Program-made: the position numbers and the translations under genes | In this document: piece by piece, positions 20,577 to 59,559 of the stretch | How the letters are laid out: each line of letters begins with the position of its first letter | Position numbering within the stretch: position 1 is the stretch's first letter | Source: Candidatus Sulfomarinibacteraceae bacterium | GTDB taxonomy: Bacteria; Acidobacteriota; Thermoanaerobaculia; Thermoanaerobaculales; Sulfomarinibacteraceae | Assembly: GCA_963796455.1 (NCBI GenBank) | Contig: CAWCLO010000007.1 | Span: forward strand, 192,001 to 256,000 | DNA: 64,000 nt | Reading direction: 5' to 3' | The notes under the pieces: model-generated | Seen by the model: the letters and a program-made list of their open reading frames with translations, nothing else | What the model was told of the DNA's origin: nothing | Database searches by the model: none

Positions 20577-20990
20577 TTACTCTTGTCCAGGACAGAGTAT
20601 TCAGACCGTGACCGGGGACAGTGTCAGTGAACAGGAGTCAGCGTCAGAGTTCAGTCGGCAGCGTCAGCGATCAGCGATCAGCGACCGGGACAGCGAACAG
20701 CACTCACATCTTCGGGTTCAACAGCCGCCAGGTCATCGCACGGCCCTGATCGAAGGCATTCATCGCTTCACCGGCTCCGTTCGGGCTGATCGCCCCGGCG
20801 GGGGCGAGGAGCTCCAAGTGGCCGACCACCGGCTACCCCTGCTGGTGAACGACCCGGAGGTGGCCACGCCGTCGCGGAACCTGATCGCTGATCGCTGACG
20901 CTGCCAACTGTCGCTGCCGCTGTTCGCTGTTCCCTGACGCTGGACACTGTCGCTGCCGCTGCAATTCGGGATCGGGATCGGAATCGGGCC
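20577..20990 (-). mobile_element. E2: internally deleted element with four-helix-bundle gene remnant
   Basis: Degenerate TIR TTACTCTTGTCCAGGACAGA at 20577. The 5' arm of the leader hairpin is fused directly to the last ~40 codons of the gene. Far end not defined. Confidence 0.8.
20704..20826 (-). pseudogene. 3' fragment of four-helix-bundle protein gene
   Basis: Translates to VGHLELLAPAGAISPNGAGEAMNAFDQGRAMTWRLLNPKM*, matching the C-terminus of the intact copies. Confidence 0.9.
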
Positions 20991-31613: not shown

Positions 31614-33456
31614 GTGGATTACAAAGTAGATAAGCGCGATGTCAAGTTCCAGCTCTTTGAATGGCTGGGTCTCGGCAAGATGCTCGAGGCAGAGAAATTC
31701 GCTGATTGGGACGAAGAAAACGTGCAGATGGTCCTCGATGAGGCCCTCAAGATCGCCAAGGAACAGTTGGGACCGTGCAACGAGGACGGAGACCGCATCG
31801 GCGCCCAATATGCCGATGGCAAGGTCACCCTGCCGGAATCCTTCAAACCCGTCTACCAGACCATCTGCGAAGGAGGTTGGCTCGGGCTCCTGGCAAGCCC
31901 CGAATATGGGGGCATGGGTCTTCCCGACACCGTCGGTACGGCGGTCAACGAGTTTTTCAACGGTTCGAACGTGGCTTTCACCCTGACGCTCATGTTGACC
32001 CGTGGTGCGGGCGCCATGATCGAAGGATTCGGCACCGATGAGCAGAAGGCCACCTTTGTCGAAAAGCTCTACTCCGGTGAGTGGAGTGGCACCATGTGTC
32101 TGACCGAGGCACAGGCCGGATCCGATGTCGGCGCCTCCACCACCAAGGCGGTTAAAAACGACGATGGCAGCTATGCCATCAGCGGTGAGAAGATCTTCAT
32201 CACCGGCGGCGACCACGACCTGCCCCAGAACATCATCCACCTGGTCCTCGCACGCACCCCGGATGCTCCCAGCGGAACAAAGGGTCTTTCCCTGTTCATC
32301 GTTCCCAAGATCCGGATCAATGACGACGGTTCCCTCGGAGAAGCAAACGACGTATTCGTCAACAATATCGAGGAGAAGATGGGCATCCACGGTTCGCCCA
32401 CCTGCACCCTCGTCTTCGGCCAGAACGACGGTTGCCAGGGCTTCATCCTGGGCGAAGAGCTTCAAGGCATGAAGCTCATGTTCCATCTCATGAACGCTGC
32501 CCGGATCGATGTTGGTCTGCAGGGCCAGGCTGCCGCCGGGGCCGCTCACCAACAGGCCCTGTCCTACGCCAAAGAGAGGTTGCAGAGCCGTCACTGGAAA
32601 GAGCTCAGAAATCCCGACGCGCCGCAGGTGGCGATCATCGAGCATCCGGACGTCCGGCGCATGTTGCTCTCATCGAAGGCCTACACCGAGGCCATGCGGG
32701 CACTGCTCCTGCAAACCTCCTATTACCTCGATATGTCCCACCTCACCGAGGGGGAAGAGGCCGAGCGATATCACAGCTATGTCGAGATGCTCACGCCGAT
32801 CTGCAAGGCGTGGTGCTCGGAATGGGGCGTCCAGGTCACCCACTGGTGCCTGCAGGTCCACGGTGGTTATGGCTATACCTCGGACTATCCCGCAGAACAA
32901 TTCATGCGTGACGCAGAAATCGCCTGCATCTACGAGGGCACCAATGGGATCCAGGCACTTGATTTCGTTGCCCGCAAGCTGCCGATGAACAACGGCCAGA
33001 CGATCCGCGAACTGCTCGGCGAGGCCGAGGCGACCTTCAAAAAGCTCCGCAGCGATTCGGAGATGATGGAACCGGCGTGGATGCTGGCCGCCGCCCTCAA
33101 ACAGATCGAGACCATCTCCAAGGAAATCACGAAACGGCCCGATGCGATCCAGTTGGTGCTCCTCAACGCACCCCCGCTGCTCGACATGGTCGGTACGGTA
33201 CTTGGTGCCCACTTACCTGTTGGATCAGGCCATTCTCGCAAAGAAAAAACTGACCGAAATCCTCCAAGAACAGGGGATCGACAGCGACGACAAAAAGGCC
33301 TACAAGGAATTCCTGAAGGGCCACGAAGACGCCGCCTTCTACCACAACAAGGTCCAGACCGCGATCCACTTCGCCTACCGCGCGCTGCCCACCGTGGCCG
33401 CCAAAGGCGCCGCAATCCGGTCAGGAGAAAAAAGCCCCTTCTACGCGATCATGTGA
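31614..33456 (+). pseudogene. Acyl-CoA dehydrogenase, frameshifted near 33213 (pseudogene or sequencing error)
   Basis: GTMCLTE..AGSD, ISGEKIFIT, EEKMGIHGSPT, GGYGY and IYEGTNGIQALD motifs. The natural C-terminus (YLLDQA...AAFYHNKVQTAIHF...AIM*) is in another frame; removing one T in CACTTACCTG restores it. A terminator follows 33456. Confidence 0.85.
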
Positions 33457-33484
33457 TCGCGATCGTTCCCTCCTCTTTTCTGGT

Positions 33485-33512
33485 TGCCCCCGCCGAGCGG
33501 GGGCATTTTTTT
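33485..33512 (+). terminator. Intrinsic terminator
   Basis: TGCCCCCGC-CGA-GCGGGGGCA followed by TTTTTTT. Confidence 0.9.
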
Positions 33513-33786
33513 GGCCCTAGGGGCTTGGGGATCGCAAATTTCCATCGAACCACATTGCTGTCCAAAACAGATCGTCATGAAGTTTCCCACCTGACAACAC
33601 GTGGTTTTCGGGTTGGTTCTTGGCATATCCAGTTCGCGGTTGCCCGCGTCCGCGTCCGTGCCCGTGCCCGAATTGCAGCGGCAGCGACAGGCAACAGCGA
33701 TCAGGGGCAGCGACAGGGAACAGCGACAGAGGGCAGCGACAGAGGACAGCGGAGGCGGCAGCGATCAGGAGTCCAGTCGGCGAAAT

Positions 33787-33923
33787 GGCCACCTCCGGGT
33801 CGTTCAACAGAAGGAGTAGCCGGTGGGCGGCCGATGTCAAGGACAGGCAGGGTGCAGGGCATCCTTGACATCGGCCACCACACCGGCTTGTGGGGTAGGG
33901 GCATGAACGACCCGGAGGTGACC
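33787..33923 (+). promoter_or_regulatory. Conserved nested hairpin sequestering the SD of the four-helix-bundle gene
   Basis: Three stems: GGCCACCTCCGGGTCGTTCA/TGAACGACCCGGAGGTGACC, AGCCGGTG/CACCGGCT and GGCCGATGTCAAGGA/TCCTTGACATCGGCC. Also at 54839-54974, 56687-56822 (minus) and 58929-59064. Confidence 0.8.
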
Positions 33924-34277
33924 ATGTCTTCAGCCGCCACGAACACCAACCTCGTTGCCCACTCCAAAGCCCTCGAAGCAGCAGGCATCTCGATAAAACT
34001 CGTGATGAGGGTTCCAGCTCCGCTGAAGTCCATAGCCAATCAGGTAATCCGTTCGGCAAGTTCAGTCCCTGCGAATCTGGCAGAAGGGCACGGCCGCGTC
34101 GGTAGAGACCGGTCGAATCACTGGAGAATCGCCTACGCCTCGGCCAAAGAGGTCGACAGCCACTTGCAGCTCCTCGCCCACACCGGGGCGATCAGCCCGA
34201 ACAGAGCCAGTGAAGCGATGAACGCCTTCGATCAGGTGCGTGCCATGACTTGGAGATTGATCAACCCAAAGTCTTGA
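33924..34277 (+). CDS. Four-helix-bundle protein (23S rRNA IVP / Avd-like family), 117 aa
   Basis: IANQVIRSASSVPANLAEGHGR...IAYASAKE family motif; GGAGGTG SD. Confidence 0.9.
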   Translation: MSSAATNTNLVAHSKALEAAGISIKLVMRVPAPLKSIANQVIRSASSVPANLAEGHGRVGRDRSNHWRIAYASAKEVDSHLQLLAHTGAISPNRASEAMNAFDQVRAMTWRLINPKS

Positions 34278-34537
34278 TTTCAGGGCTCCATGCCAGTCAA
34301 ACGTGAGGCTGACTGCTGTTCGCTGACCATGAACACTGGACACTGGTTCCTGACTCTGATCGCTGTCGCCGTCCCTGAACGCTATCCGAGACTCTGTTTT
34401 GGACAACATCGATCGAACGACAGCATTACAGGCCCATTCCGTCGAAGGAGATTCCGGCTACGACAAGGAAAGCAAAGCCGCGAGCCAGGTGCTCGCGGCT
34501 TGTTGTAGGCGAAAATTTTTTGGACTCGAACGCGGGA

Positions 34538-35587
34538 TCAGGCGATTGTCACCTCATCGCAGAGATACACGTCCTGGATTGCGTTGAGCAGCGTTACACC
34601 ATCGGTCATCGGTTTCTGGAACGCTTTGCGCCCGGAAATCAGACCCATGCCACCGGCGCGTTTGTTGATGACGGCGGTTGTCACCGCCTGCGCGAGATCA
34701 TTGTCACCCGAGGCGCCGCCGGAGTTGATGAGCCCGGCGCGACCCATGTAGCAGTTGACCACCTGCCAACGGGTCAACTCGATCGGATTGTTCGGGACCA
34801 GCGAGTCATAGACGAGCGGGTGGGTCTTGCCAAAACCAATGGCGGTGTAACCGCCGTTGTTGGTGGCCTGCTTTTGCTTGATGATGTCGGCTTCAATGGT
34901 CACACCGAGATGATTCGCCTGACCCGTGAGATCGGCCGAGGCATGATAGTCGGTGCCGTCTTTTTTGAAGGCCGAGTTCCGCAGATAGCACCACAACACC
35001 GTGCACATCCCGAGTTCGTGGGCGTGCTGGAACGCTTCTGAAATCTCCATGATCTGACGCCTGCAATTGTCGGAGCCGTAATAGATGGTTGCACCGATGG
35101 CAGCCGCCCCGAGATTCCACGCCTGTTCGACCGAGGCCCACAGCGTTTGATCGTAGTCATTCGGATAGGTCAACATCTCGTTGTGGTTGATTTTGACCAG
35201 GAACGGGATTTTGTGGGCGTAGGTCCTGGAGACCGAACCGAGGACACCGAGAGTCGAGGCCACCGCATTGCAGCCGCCCTCGAGAGCGAGCTCCACGATG
35301 TTCGCAGGATCAAAGTAGATCGGGTTGGGAGCAAAGGACGCCGCCCCGGAGTGTTCGATCCCCTGATCAACCGGAAGAATCGATATGAAACCGGTGCCCG
35401 CCATCCTGCCGGTGTTGAATATCCGCTGCATGGAAGCCATCACCTGCGGCGATCGATCGGTCTTCGAAACCACCCGGTCGATGAAATCCGGACCCGGCAG
35501 ATGGAGTTGGTATGACGAAACTCCGGTGCATTGATAGTTGAGTAACGATGCCTGGTCTCCGAGATGCTTGCTGATGGTATCGATCAT
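34538..35587 (-). CDS. fbaB: Class I fructose-bisphosphate aldolase
   Basis: [24 protein letters not shown] and [10 protein letters not shown] motifs. Confidence 0.95.
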
Positions 35588-48121: not shown

Positions 48122-48647
48122 TCACTCTTGTCCAAGACAGTGTCTCGGACAGCGTTCAGGAACGGCCCTGAAGGTGGGCCAAGGCCCACCTTCAGAGTTG
48201 TGTCCCGCTGGCTGGATCACCCAGCCCAGGCGGGAAGTATCGGACAGCGATCAGGGGCAGCGGCAGCGAACAGTCGCCAGCGGCAGTGTTCAGTCATCAG
48301 CGTCAGCGATCAGCGGCCGGGACAGTGAACAGCACTCATTTCTTCGAGGATCCGGCCTTGGTGGTGCGGCCGTCTCGGCCGCACGGTGGGCAGGCAAGAC
48401 GCCGACACCACAGCGGCTGTTCCTTCTGTTGAACGACCCGGAGGTGGCCACGCCGTCACTGCACCTGATTGCTGCCGCTGAACTCTGATCACTGTTCGCT
48501 GAACCTGGACACTGTCGCTGCCGCTGCAATTCGGGAGCGGGATCGGGTACGTGCCAATCGCGAACCGATAATGCCTAAAACCAACCCGAAGACCTTCTAT
48601 TGTCCTGGATGCGATTTCACGTGAAGATTTGTTTTCGACAGCAGCAA
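48122..48647 (-). mobile_element. E4: short non-coding TIR element, degenerate, with nested palindrome
   Basis: TIR TCACTCTTGTCCAAGACAG at 48122 and degenerate TTTGTTTTCGACAGCAG near 48628. Same central cassette as E1/E8. Extra palindrome at 48168-48195. No intact flanking repeat. Confidence 0.78.
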
Positions 48648-48662
48648 AACTGGATGCTGGAT

Positions 48663-49565
48663 TCAAAAACCCCACGGGAGTGTCCCCGTGTAACCCGAGC
48701 GGGTGTCCACGGTATAGCCCTCGACCTTGACCTCGATGGTCCGCCATTTATCGGTCCCCACGCCTGAGGCCTCAAAGGTGAGGATGTATCGAGAGGACAG
48801 TTCTCTGACCAACTCGTCGACGATCTCCGGCATAACCTCCGCCTTTGGGATGCGCCGGTAATGGCCTCCGGAAGCCTCTGCGATCATCGTCAGGATCTCC
48901 TCGTACGAAGGCCCATCGGATTCCATGGAAGGAGGTGGCGGTTCCACACCGAGCACATAGATCGGTGTTTCGAGACGCCGGACCACATCCATTGCCTGTT
49001 CAGGGCTCATCTGCGAGGCATTGTCGACACCATCCGTGAGGAGGATGGCGGCACGTCGGTGATGGCGAGCCTTCTCGAGCATCTCGGGCACCCGACGCGC
49101 CATATCGTAGATTGCCGTGGTGCTCCACGGTTTGAGCGTCTCGAGAACCCGCGGCAGCAGATACCAACCCATACCAAAGGGGAATTTTTCGAGCACACGG
49201 TCGTCACCAAAGGTCCACAGAGCCAACTGATCTTCGGGCCGGCGGCGCTCCAGGAATGCAGAGATCAACTGTTTGCTTCCCGACAGCTTGCGACCCGACA
49301 TTGAACCAGAGGTATCGAGGATAAAGCCGAGACTGATCGGCAGATCTGTTTCAAGATTCAAATCCTGGATCCGGACCTTGAGCCCATCGACATAGAGTTC
49401 GAATTTTTGCCGGGAGATACCGGTGACCACACGACCCTTGGCGTTTCGGACCGTCACCGGAACAACCACGGCATTGATGTCGACCTGACCCTGGTATTGA
49501 GCCTCGACGCCGCTCGCGACGCCGACGACGGCGATCGCGCAAAAAAGAAGGGCCCGCCGCATCAA
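48663..49565 (-). CDS. VWA domain-containing protein
   Basis: ILDTSGSM MIDAS motif, TAIYD, LLTDGVDNAS and IAEASGG. Confidence 0.92.
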   Translation of the reverse strand: MMRRALLFCAIAVVGVASGVEAQYQGQVDINAVVVPVTVRNAKGRVVTGISRQKFELYVDGLKVRIQDLNLETDLPISLGFILDTSGSMSGRKLSGSKQLISAFLERRRPEDQLALWTFGDDRVLEKFPFGMGWYLLPRVLETLKPWSTTAIYDMARRVPEMLEKARHHRRAAILLTDGVDNASQMSPEQAMDVVRRLETPIYVLGVEPPPPSMESDGPSYEEILTMIAEASGGHYRRIPKAEVMPEIVDELVRELSSRYILTFEASGVGTDKWRTIEVKVEGYTVDTRSGYTGTLPWGF

Positions 49566-54612: not shown

Positions 54613-55428
<816 letters not shown>

Positions 55429-56193: not shown

Positions 56194-56980
56194 TCACTCT
56201 TGTCCAAGACAGGGTCTCAGACAGCGACCAGGGACGGGGAACGGCGGACAGCGTCAGGAAACAGTAGTCAGCTGTCAGCGGCAGCGGCAGAAACCAGCGC
56301 CAGCGACAGTGGTCAGCGGCAGCGAATAGCACTTACATTTTCAAGTTCTAAAGCCGCCACGTCATGGCACGGACCTGATCGAAGGCGTTCATCGCTTCAC
56401 TGGCTCCGTTGGGGCTGATCGCCCCCGCATGGGCGAGGAGCTGCAAGTGGCTGTCGACCTCTTTCGCCGAGGCGTAGGCGATTCTCCAATGGTTCAACCG
56501 GTCTCTACCGAAACAGCCGTGGCCTTCAGCCAGGTTCGCAGGGACTGAACTCGACGATCGGATCACCTGATCGGCTATGGACTTCAGCGGAGCTGGAACC
56601 CTCATCACAAGCTTGATCGCTATTCCTGCTGCTTCGAGGGCTTTCGAGTGGGCAACGAGGTTGGTGTTCGTGGCGGCTTTGGACATGGTCACCTCCGGGT
56701 CGTTCATGCCCATTCCCACAAGCCGGTGTGGTGGCCGATGTCAAGGATGCCCTGCACCCTGCCTGTCCTTGACATCGGCCGCCCACCGGCTACCCCTTCT
56801 GTTGAACGACCCGGAGGTGGCCACGTCGTCGCCTGTACTCCTGACCGCTGCCGCTGGACACTGATTGCTGATCTCTGTCGCTGACGCCGCCTCCTGTCGC
56901 TGTCCCTGCACCCTGGACACTGTCGCTGACGCTGGGCACTGTCGCTGCCGCTGCAATTCGGGATCGGGATCGGGATCGGG
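56194..56980 (-). mobile_element. E6: four-helix-bundle element, left end truncated
   Basis: TIR TCACTCTTGTCCAAGACAG at 56194 next to a (CTCGATA)n array; hairpin and gene on the minus strand. Confidence 0.82.
56348..56686 (-). CDS. Four-helix-bundle protein, 112 aa (TAG five codons before the usual end)
   Basis: Ends WRL*NLKM*, whereas sister copies end WRL(L/I)NP... Confidence 0.85.
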   Translation of the reverse strand: MSKAATNTNLVAHSKALEAAGIAIKLVMRVPAPLKSIADQVIRSSSSVPANLAEGHGCFGRDRLNHWRIAYASAKEVDSHLQLLAHAGAISPNGASEAMNAFDQVRAMTWRL

Positions 56981-58695: not shown

Positions 58696-59559
58696 TCACT
58701 GCTGTCCAAAACAGATCGTCACCTGAAGTTACCCACCTGACAACACGTGGTTTACGGGTTGGTTTTTGGCATATCCGGTTCGCGGTTGGCACGTACCCGT
58801 TCCCGATCCCGAATTGCAGCGGCAGCGACAGTGTCCAGCGTCAGCGACAGACAACAGCGAACAGGGACAGCGGTCAGTGTTCAGCGCCAGAGAGCAGCGG
58901 CAGCGGTCAGGAGTACAGGCGACGAAGTGGCCACCATCGGGTCGTTCAACAGAAGAGGTAGCCGGTGGGCGGCCGATGTCAAGGACAGGCAGGGTGCAGG
59001 GCATCCTTGACATCGGCCACCACACCGGCTTGTGGGTATGGGCATGAACGACCCGGAGGTGACCATGTCCTCAGCCGCCACGAACACCAAACTCGTTGCC
59101 CACTCGAAAGCACTCGAAGCCGCAGGAATCGCGATCAAGCTCGTGATGAGGGTTCCAGCTCCTCTGAAGTCGATAGCCGATCAGGTGATCCGGTCGGCAA
59201 GTTCGGTCCCTGCGAACCTGGCAGAAGGGCACGGCCGGTTTGGTAGAGACCGGTCGAACCACTGGAGGATCGCCTACGCCTCGGCCAAAGAGGTCGACAG
59301 CCACTTGCAGCTTCTCGCTCACGCCGGGGCGATCAGCCCGAACAGAGCCAGTGAAGCGATGAAGGCCTTTGATCAGGTGCGTGCAATGACTTGGAGATTG
59401 CTCAACCCGAAGTCTTGATTTCAGGGCCCCATGCCAGTCAAACGTGACGCTGACTCCTGTTCGCTGACGCTGAACACTGATTGCTGTTCCCTGTCCCTGA
59501 CGCTGATCGCTGTCGCCGTCCCTGAACGCCAGCCGAGACTCTGTCTTGGACAAGAGTGA
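58696..59559 (+). mobile_element. E7: full-length 864-bp TIR element with four-helix-bundle gene, flanking repeat CGCTGGA
   Basis: TIRs TCACTGCTGTCCAAAACAGA / TCTGTCTTGGACAAGAGTGA (17/20). CGCTGGA at 58689-58695 and 59560-59566. Confidence 0.9.
59065..59418 (+). CDS. Four-helix-bundle protein, 117 aa
   Basis: IADQVIRSASSVPANLAEGHGR motif. Confidence 0.9.
   Translation: MSSAATNTKLVAHSKALEAAGIAIKLVMRVPAPLKSIADQVIRSASSVPANLAEGHGRFGRDRSNHWRIAYASAKEVDSHLQLLAHAGAISPNRASEAMKAFDQVRAMTWRLLNPKS

Follow-up and report, generated by a model that had tools for sequence, protein, structure and literature searches.

Leader hairpins that bury the ribosome-binding site (RBS) are a familiar means by which mobile DNA restrains its own genes. 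In IS200, a stem-loop in the 5' untranslated region of tnpA (nts 69-138) sequesters a near-perfect Shine-Dalgarno sequence (SD) and blocks binding of the 30S subunit (Ellis, Trussler and Haniford 2015, PMC4513863). Here we describe a much longer hairpin, 140 nt at positions 33787-33926 of a 64,000-nt stretch (the window) of contig CAWCLO010000007.1 from a Candidatus Sulfomarinibacteraceae bacterium (assembly GCA_963796455.1). The hairpin ends at the start codon of a 117-amino-acid (aa) gene for a four-helix-bundle protein, and both lie in a multicopy cassette that has terminal inverted repeats (TIRs) and no transposase. We conclude that the hairpin is functional and under selection rather than a palindrome that arose by chance, as strongly supported by covariation, by a mosaic of constraint among its copies, by its register with the start site, and by the predicted cost of opening it. 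It is specific to one bacterial family and to one multicopy cassette gene.

The IS200 tnpA leader is, by analogy of predicted design, the closest working analogue. In both cases a hairpin within a small mobile element buries a near-consensus SD (here by prediction), the ribosome might use single-stranded runs ahead of the start as toeholds, and the element's own promoter is undefined. However, the two share no sequence or covariance-model similarity. The hairpin described here is twice as long, has three tiers, an invariant box and two in-frame ATGs, and precedes a passenger gene for a four-helix-bundle protein rather than a transposase gene.

By gene content, the closest relative is the intervening sequence (IVS) of 23S rRNA that bears an open reading frame (ORF). 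In Coxiella burnetii, the 23S rRNA IVS with S23p forms a 28-bp stem that is cut mid-stem by RNase III, with loss of the SD region (Warrier et al. 2016, PMC4990558). As in the cassette, the protein belongs to PF05635 and its gene is accompanied by a long stable stem. In contrast to the Coxiella IVS, the hairpin here lies wholly upstream of the ORF and does not enclose it; the enclosing stem in the cassette would be formed by inverted arrays and the TIRs, as seen in the fold only. We rejected an ORF-bearing 23S rRNA IVS as the identity of the window copy, which sits between protein genes. The single 23S rRNA gene found in this genome (C10:140644-143654, L061) is 3011 nt long against a model of 2925 positions, and its approximately 86 extra bases leave no room for an ORF-bearing insert. 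Avd, a protein of diversity-generating retroelements (DGRs), is classed in the same four-helix-bundle family (PMC10053308). A DGR avd gene was rejected too: the reverse transcriptase profile PF00078 had no match in the genome, which is 90.5% complete (5.02 Mb in 10 contigs), and there is no context of template and variable repeats.

The minimum free energy (MFE) fold of the hairpin has three stacked helices, as a preliminary description of the sequence had proposed, and a free energy of -92.2 kcal/mol. Dinucleotide shuffles (n = 200) gave -58.7 ± 4.1 kcal/mol (z = -8.14), and none was equally stable. The outer stem consists of 4 + 17 bp split by a single C.A mismatch, with ATGG.CACCTCCGGGTCGTTCA paired to TGAACGACCCGGAGGTG.CCAT. 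The preliminary description was right that this stem pairs the SD GGAGGTG and ends at the ATG, although the 20-nt arms it quoted pair at 19 positions and not at all 20. An internal loop of 11 x 14 nt separates the outer stem from the middle stem, in which AGCCGGTG-GG pairs with CC-CACCGGCT. In the inner stem of 15 bp, which is closed by an apical loop of 18 nt, TGTCAAGG lies on the 5' side and CCTTGACA on the 3' side (together, the box). Within the box, TGTCAA (33835-33840) and TTGACA (33865-33870) face each other on opposite arms; they are not back to back, as had been stated. The 77-nt core (AGCCGGTG...TTGTGGG), loop included, occurs exactly four times in the window, at 33818-33894, 54870-54946 and 58960-59036 on the plus strand and at 56715-56791 on the minus strand. 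The four are identical letter for letter, and a 30-mer from the core had 4 matches in the window against 0.00 expected. The coding sequences (CDSs) behind these identical cores differ from one another at many sites. Both the identity of the cores and the divergence of the CDSs had been noticed before and are borne out. Features are listed in Table 1.

Table 1. Positions of the hairpin, its gene and the cassette in the window.
Feature	Position	Strand	Remarks and basis
Orphan 5' arm, cassette deletion derivative; hairpin cut at GGTCGGCC and fused to CDS (C7_212865_-)	20846..20865	-	
Cassette copy, TIR-bounded, transposase-less, with hairpin and gene inside	33553..34414	+	blastn coverage
Left TIR core TGTCCAAAACAGA	33559..33571	+	partner at 34393-34405
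Outer stem, 5' arm (ATGG.CACCTCCGGGTCGTTCA)	33785..33806	+	anti-SD; resembles 3' tail of 16S rRNA; fold
Internal loop, 5' side	33807..33817	+	purine-rich, variable; diversity 0.195 (68 copies); purine fraction 0.71 (41 homologues)
Middle stem, 5' side (AGCCGGTG GG)	33818..33827	+	nearly invariant T (GTAG) before it; 6 of 7 helix pairs compensated
Inner stem, 5' side	33829..33843	+	sequence-invariant box TGTCAAGG at 33835-33842; box pairs constant in 41 sequences
Apical loop	33844..33861	+	diversity 0.013 within the genome; additional small hairpin there in relatives
Inner stem, 3' side	33862..33876	+	box CCTTGACA at 33863-33870
Middle stem, 3' side	33878..33888	+	fold
Internal loop, 3' side	33889..33902	+	G-rich, unpaired; SD-like run ahead of upstream ATG; purine fraction 0.72, above 0.6 in 38 of 41; diversity 0.113
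Upstream in-frame ATG at base of outer stem	33903..33905	+	would add MNDPEVT; in 40 of 41 homologues
Outer stem, 3' arm, with SD GGAGGTG (33914-33920)	33904..33925	+	diversity 0.012; GGAGG in 40 of 41
Gene for 117-aa four-helix-bundle protein (PF05635 / TIGR02436), pI 10.9	33924..34277	+	ORF list, profile searches
Right TIR core TCTGTTTTGGACA	34393..34405	+	partner of left TIR
Orphan 5' arm, gene-less mini-cassette with other hairpin (C7_240449_-)	48430..48449	-	
Second hairpin copy, then its gene	54839..54977	+	sequence match and fold
Third hairpin copy, gene on minus strand	56684..56822	-	sequence match and fold
Fourth hairpin copy, then its gene	58929..59067	+	sequence match and fold

The covariation of the stems is a strong sign of selection on the hairpin. 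By blastn, the hairpin was found in 18 of 24 genomes of the same genus and in none of 16 genomes of the sister family. A covariance model (R1) built from 28 sequences for genome searches matched 15 of the 19 other genomes of the family, in nine further genera, and none of 14 in the sister family. Among the 28 same-genus sequences, both sides of a pair had changed at 14 of 43 pairs, compared to 4.5 ± 1.6 in shuffles. In an alignment of 41 sequences from several genera, 96.6% of the cells were paired, and compensated changes were found at 25 of 39 pairs, in 114 cells. Shuffles gave 9.1 ± 1.6 pairs and 23.5 ± 4.4 cells (0 of 500 reached the observed values), and controls with slid alignments gave 4-12 pairs; the 41 sequences are interrelated, and the shuffle counts are therefore not probabilities. 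Compensated changes affect 11 of 18 pairs of the outer stem and nearly every pair of the middle stem, with the box GTCAAGGG/CCCTTGAC constant in all 41 sequences and the stems on either side of it changing freely. The preliminary description had named covariation and conservation in more distant homologues as one point on which its proposal should stand or fall, and both are present across the family. It had also called the hairpin invariant, which holds within the genome but does not extend to other species, where the stems change by compensated substitutions.

Several sequences were left out of these comparisons. Between alignments A2 and A4 we dropped L025, L028, which has an inverted apex, and L020, which is a further copy from this genome. 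The far set lost L087 (broken gene), L071:1770, and L076-L078 (weak and gene-less). In L028:1501-1648 (-), the apex is reverse-complemented between its TGTCAAGGG and CCCTTGACA arms, a flip at the DNA level between inverted arms. In the remainder of 141 genomes of the class, the covariance model gave just two weak matches, both without the gene. The weak matches L076:1501-1647 (+) and L078:1501-1646 (-), which come from two further families within the class, retain the box and apex (e.g. CCGGTGTCAAGGGC...GACCCTTGACACCGG), have no outer stem, SD or downstream four-helix-bundle gene, and may be decayed cassettes.

Within the genome, hairpin and gene are closely coupled. There are 68 full hairpins, 55 of which have an intact 117-aa ORF behind them. 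The 5' arm, core and 3' arm are present at 58 of the 59 full-length genes of the cassette subfamily, and the remaining gene is truncated at its 5' end. Hairpins with the box number 67, with 65 inside cassette copies and two that are chance matches; a search of this genome for independent dispersal of the core hairpin found none. The earlier claim that every four-helix-bundle gene has the hairpin holds for all four in the window and for the cassette subfamily, but two canonical PF05635 paralogues in this genome and 30 distant homologues are without it.

The pattern of variation among the 68 copies also points to selection. Nucleotide diversity in the CDS is 0.078 at the first codon position, 0.063 at the second and 0.229 at the third, and the protein is therefore under purifying selection. 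Diversity is 0.01-0.02 in the 77-nt core, 0.046 in the 5' arm of the outer stem, and 0.015 and 0.031 in the middle and inner stems. The stems and apical loop are thus 5-15 times less variable than the CDS, and the two sides of the internal loop vary at about the synonymous rate (Table 1). Near-neutral internal loops between frozen stems argue for selection on the stems and apex. The mosaic argues against a recent burst of copying and against blanket gene conversion or homogenization.

The hairpin is in register with the signals for translation initiation. The 16S rRNA of this genome ends in GGATCACCTCCTT, and the SD GGAGGTGA(C/T)C in the 3' arm complements 8-10 nt of this tail. Thus, the 5' arm of the hairpin mimics the ribosomal anti-SD. 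GGAGG persists in all but one of the 41 homologues, even where the rest of the arm has been rewritten and fully compensated (in L071, GGTTTCCTCCC with GGGAGGAAACC), and in 39 of them the ATG marks the end of the palindrome. The upstream in-frame ATG is similarly widespread; it lies 21 nt before the ATG at 33924, and the G-rich loop side ahead of it reads like a weak SD. One homologue, L075, has neither the SD nor the downstream ATG, so that only the upstream ATG can serve as its start; its outer stem, which there spans the first codons, is nonetheless fully compensated. A stem that is kept without an SD indicates selection for blocking the start region, beyond covering the SD.

The start region should be costly to open, depending on where the RNA begins. 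We calculated the cost of freeing positions -13 to +13 around the ATG. It is 30.2 kcal/mol for an RNA that starts at the cassette end, 23.5 kcal/mol for one that starts at the 5' arm, and 8.7-13.7 kcal/mol for one that starts downstream of the 5' arm. Among the controls, 150 SD-bearing genes drawn from 627 candidates, the median was 11.1 kcal/mol, the 95th percentile 17.9 kcal/mol and the maximum 24.1 kcal/mol, so that the cost from the cassette end exceeds that of every control. In silico, the leader has an SD-pairing stem of the IS200 tnpA type.

Based on these results and on the IS200 analogy, we give a probability of roughly 0.5 to the hairpin being a translation-silencing leader that occludes the start region in the sense mRNA. 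If the leader is transcribed with its 5' arm, then the RBS and both in-frame ATGs would be buried, and this burial likely keeps some 58 intact gene copies at very low translation. The effect would be exerted in the sense mRNA, as in the leader stem-loop of IS200 tnpA. Transcripts that arrive from upstream would be silent, and only RNAs that start without the 5' arm, or that have lost it, would be translated. Fold-back inhibition in IS10 and IS50, said to have been described by Davis, Simons and Kleckner in 1985, reportedly works in this way, with RNAs from outside carrying a segment complementary to the start region and remaining silent. The likeness is one of logic: RNAs initiated outside the element would be silent, and a high copy number calls for damping. 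Unlike in IS10 and IS50, a scan of 33450-34550 found no internal promoter that would yield an mRNA free of the 5' arm.

Part of the hairpin may also be recognized by a protein. The box and the apical loop keep their sequence while the flanking stems covary freely, which suggests that a trans-acting factor reads them; together they are probably a recognition site for some factor. We postulate that the invariant box GUCAAGGG/CCCUUGAC (8 bp) and the apex might be bound by the basic protein that the gene encodes or by RNase III. A near-perfect duplex of about 45 bp is a textbook substrate of RNase III. Since the outer arms would stay paired after a cut, cleavage would be more likely to destroy the mRNA than to activate it.

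Several observations weigh against a silencing leader or leave it less secure. A scan for sigma-70-type promoters on both strands of 33450-34550 found none, and the presence of the 5' arm in mRNA stays predicted. The RNA data are metatranscriptome contigs of relatives, which are blind to ends, strand and level. In the run used (X1), a fraction of 0.07 of the sampled words was present, and contigs were placed at a likeness of at least 85%; their summed depth was 20-70 over the relatives' CDS and 4-8 over the hairpin core, with breaks near 33892-33900, although palindromes break assemblies anyway. Covariation is equally compatible with a DNA hairpin, and G.U pairs on the sense strand do not exceed A.C mismatches (17 vs 21 cells; 12 vs 17 events). 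Of the 66 distinct copies in this genome, 62 are more stable in the antisense fold, because of two inherited C.A mismatches; relatives are split 16 to 12. Cassettes are oriented with their upstream neighbor in 33 cases and against it in 32 (by crude ORF calls), and silencing of read-through would therefore be relevant to about half of them. Some initiation may escape, since the G-rich run is unpaired and the upstream in-frame ATG lies at the edge of the helix. Finally, hairpins ahead of broken genes are not detectably more decayed than others (4.7 vs 4.3 differences, p = 0.16, with low power).

Whether the hairpin acts as RNA or as DNA is a matter of leaning. The preliminary description had offered either a functional cis-RNA or a DNA element; the functional structure is upheld, and the balance of G.U pairs and A.C mismatches does not decide for RNA. 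Both sides of the internal loop are purine-rich on the sense strand, a feature that a symmetric DNA palindrome would not require. Together with the SD-like run before the upstream ATG and the lineage in which SD and ATG have both been lost, this sequence pattern leads us to lean toward a sense RNA.

A possible, though unlikely, alternative to the silencing leader is that the hairpin is an autoregulatory operator, an RNA ligand through which the basic Avd-like protein sets its own translation or assembles on its own mRNA. Avd binds nucleic acids, and the constancy of the box amid covarying stems, the conservation of the apical loop within the genome, and the coupling of hairpin and gene at 58 of 59 loci are what such an operator might be expected to leave. 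The encoded protein has a pI of 10.9 and belongs to PF05635, a family tied to Avd by sequence and structure (PMC10053308). However, the hairpin cannot be a family-wide partner, since the canonical PF05635 genes of this genome and the 30 distant ones lack it. In a bolder form of this proposal, hairpin and protein would constitute a self-recognizing module, with the box GUCAAGGG/CCCUUGAC and apex as operator of a putative Avd-like pentamer, which we regard as rather unlikely.

We are similarly doubtful that the hairpin acts in DNA, as a cruciform or single-stranded hairpin for a recombinase, an HUH-type enzyme or a DNA-binding protein, with the SD merely inside it. The missing excess of G.U pairs would fit such an element, as would the clustering of deletion junctions on the 5' side of the stem at GGCGGCCG, the inverted apex of L028 and the nearly invariant (G/A)TAG 5' of the middle stem, which resembles the heads of REP elements. 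Yet a DNA element accounts poorly for a palindrome that ends at the ATG and holds GGAGG in nearly all homologues, for the joint loss of SD and ATG in L075, and for loop sides that are purine-rich on one strand only. In addition, hairpin-less derivatives have multiplied, and the core is never dispersed alone in this genome.

Another alternative is that RNase III or another nuclease cuts the duplex and frees the start region, which would make the hairpin a processing-dependent switch that turns translation on. The near-perfect duplex of more than 20 bp would suit such an enzyme, and RNase III excises IVSs that carry PF05635 proteins (PMC4990558). We think this improbable, since the fold indicates that a cut in the upper stem would leave the 21-bp, GC-rich outer arms annealed, and since the cut in Coxiella removes the SD rather than exposing it. 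An antisense regulator, a hairpin RNA from the opposite strand that pairs in trans with all leaders in a copy-number-dependent way, has the stability of its fold here (204 vs 54 G.U pairs), the high copy number and the precedents of IS10 RNA-OUT, described for multicopy inhibition, and IS200 art200 in its favor (PMC4513863), but it is highly improbable because that asymmetry stems from the two inherited mismatches and is gone in relatives, and because no minus-strand promoter was found in the scan of 33450-34550.

Other identities for the hairpin were tried and rejected. The Rfam search that the preliminary description had proposed returned no family: Rfam 15 gave no match at gathering level over the whole window. 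At E <= 10 over 33550-34450, the only matches over the hairpin were to eukaryotic microRNA (miRNA)-precursor models (14-28 bits vs cut-offs of 50-168) and isrG (8.7 vs 100), and weak matches to Bcj11 and IS1222_FSE, both below cut-off, sit upstream of it. The hairpin is no intrinsic terminator, for no U run comes after it (plus strand, ATGTCT...; minus strand, CATTTCGCC), and a terminator scan was silent there; the two terminator-like sites found both belong to the flanking convergent genes. The inner-stem TTGACA was rejected as a -35 element. It has no -10 element 16-18 bp downstream (0 sites on either strand), and the positions 17 bp on are a covarying stem without a conserved hexamer. Directly 5' of the middle stem (33815-33818; column T32-A33-G34 in alignment A2), the sense strand alone has a nearly invariant (G/A)T(A/G)G, reminiscent of the GTAG head that RAYT transposases read in REP elements. 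A palindrome of the REP/RAYT type was rejected; the GTAG-like head is present, but the core is not dispersed alone, in a survey with no search aimed at RAYT genes.

Whatever its mode of action, the hairpin is a new and well-defined RNA-type motif, absent from Rfam and with unusually strong support from covariation. It is tied to PF05635 (Avd-like) proteins, the function of which is unknown outside DGRs. The anti-SD arm, the invariant box and the two start codons are handles that can be mutated to learn whether and when PF05635 proteins are made and whether they bind their own RNA. The locus also raises the question of how about 58 intact copies of a gene whose SD is perfect are tolerated in one genome, and with the covariance model the motif can be annotated throughout this family of Acidobacteriota. 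If hairpin and protein do form a self-recognizing module, this would be the first defined nucleic-acid target for the "23S rRNA intervening-sequence protein" family, and it would explain why PF05635 genes always lie within long stem-loops, be they rRNA IVSs or jumping cassettes.

The encoded protein is a clear member of its family, with 57 bits against PF05635 (cut-off 33.8) and 60.7 bits against TIGR02436 (cut-off 24). Among solved structures, it matches only Xanthomonas XCC0516 in sequence (PDB 2gsc, E = 7.7e-4). The RxxxSxxxNxxE motif, as quoted in one report (PMC3936711), can be read in RSASSVPANLAE. Of 121 genomes sampled from the phylum, 72 have PF05635 genes, a tally in which the unpublished genome G063 is counted. 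Upstream of the 30 best-scoring canonical PF05635 genes from other Acidobacteriota, G-rich heptamer arrays were seen and the hairpin was not found; one of these upstream regions is masked with N and another is just 54 nt long. The two canonical paralogues in this genome likewise have G-rich heptamer arrays and no such hairpin upstream. The available text of the papers found that mention PF05635, 23S_rRNA_IVP or TIGR02436 describes no leader hairpin. The hairpin is thus no general feature of the PF05635 family.

The cassette that carries hairpin and gene is sharply bounded. Genome-wide blastn coverage rises from 1 to more than 100 at 33553, where 60 matches begin exactly, and returns to 1 past 34406-34414. 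The TIRs are CACTGCTGTCCAAAACAGA and TCTGTCTTGGACAAGAGTG, and other copies are flanked by target duplications of 8-9 bp (e.g. ATGCAGGAT and ATCCTGCAT). The genome contains 125 left-type and 121 right-type TIR sites, which form 74 adjacent left-right pairs, 22 of them spaced 800-900 bp apart. The 117-aa gene is the sole ORF within the cassette, so that TIRs, target-site duplication and the lack of a transposase mark it as a non-autonomous TIR cassette. Mobile insertion cassettes and elements similar to miniature inverted-repeat transposable elements (MITEs) have TIRs, target duplications and many copies and are without a transposase. The cassette is like them in all these respects and in its internally deleted derivatives; the likeness is one of the vehicle, not of the hairpin. 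A search of this genome for an autonomous element with the same ends found no left-right pair 1-3 kb apart. The only DDE_Tnp_1 gene of the genome (C7:291107-291601, L091) lies outside the window and has inverted ends of its own (..GTGAGCCTCTTGCAAAATTCATG / CATGAATTTTGCAAGAGGCTCAC), unrelated to the cassette TIRs.

The cassette interior is rich in repeats, with (CCCGNN)n and (GCAGCGACAG)-like arrays upstream of the hairpin (33640-33780) and complementary (CTGTCGCTG)-like arrays downstream of the gene (34290-34400). In an RNA fold of the whole cassette (MFE only), ends and arrays pair around the gene and the leader hairpin is retained, a layout similar to that of an rRNA IVS. Cassettes are usually inserted in heptamer arrays of the (GCTGGAT)n type; the window copy lies where two protein genes converge, between their terminator-like sites.

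The cassette has also given rise to derivatives. At 79 further loci, the upstream part and the 5' arm alone are retained: 43 of them form gene-less mini-cassettes that carry another hairpin, 9 have an identical junction in common, and 27 are other truncations. That such hairpin-less derivatives have multiplied indicates that the hairpin is tied to the gene and not to mobility. In the mini-cassettes, the core, the 3' arm and most of the gene are replaced by a hairpin GTTGTGGTG..GGCGTCTCGCC..GGCCGAGACGGCC..CACCACAA that is fused to the last codons of the gene. One example lies in the window at 48300-48750 (-), and 19 left-right TIR pairs in the genome are 400-500 bp apart. At the shared junction, the hairpin GGCGGCCGA is fused to the CDS ..GGTAGAGACC at a GGCCG microhomology. 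Either a defective form was copied or the deletion recurs. The nine loci in this genome are C3:98094, C7:143653, C1:368307, C1:1137328, C10:438253, C1:999983, C1:391089, C1:470249 and C3:14027.

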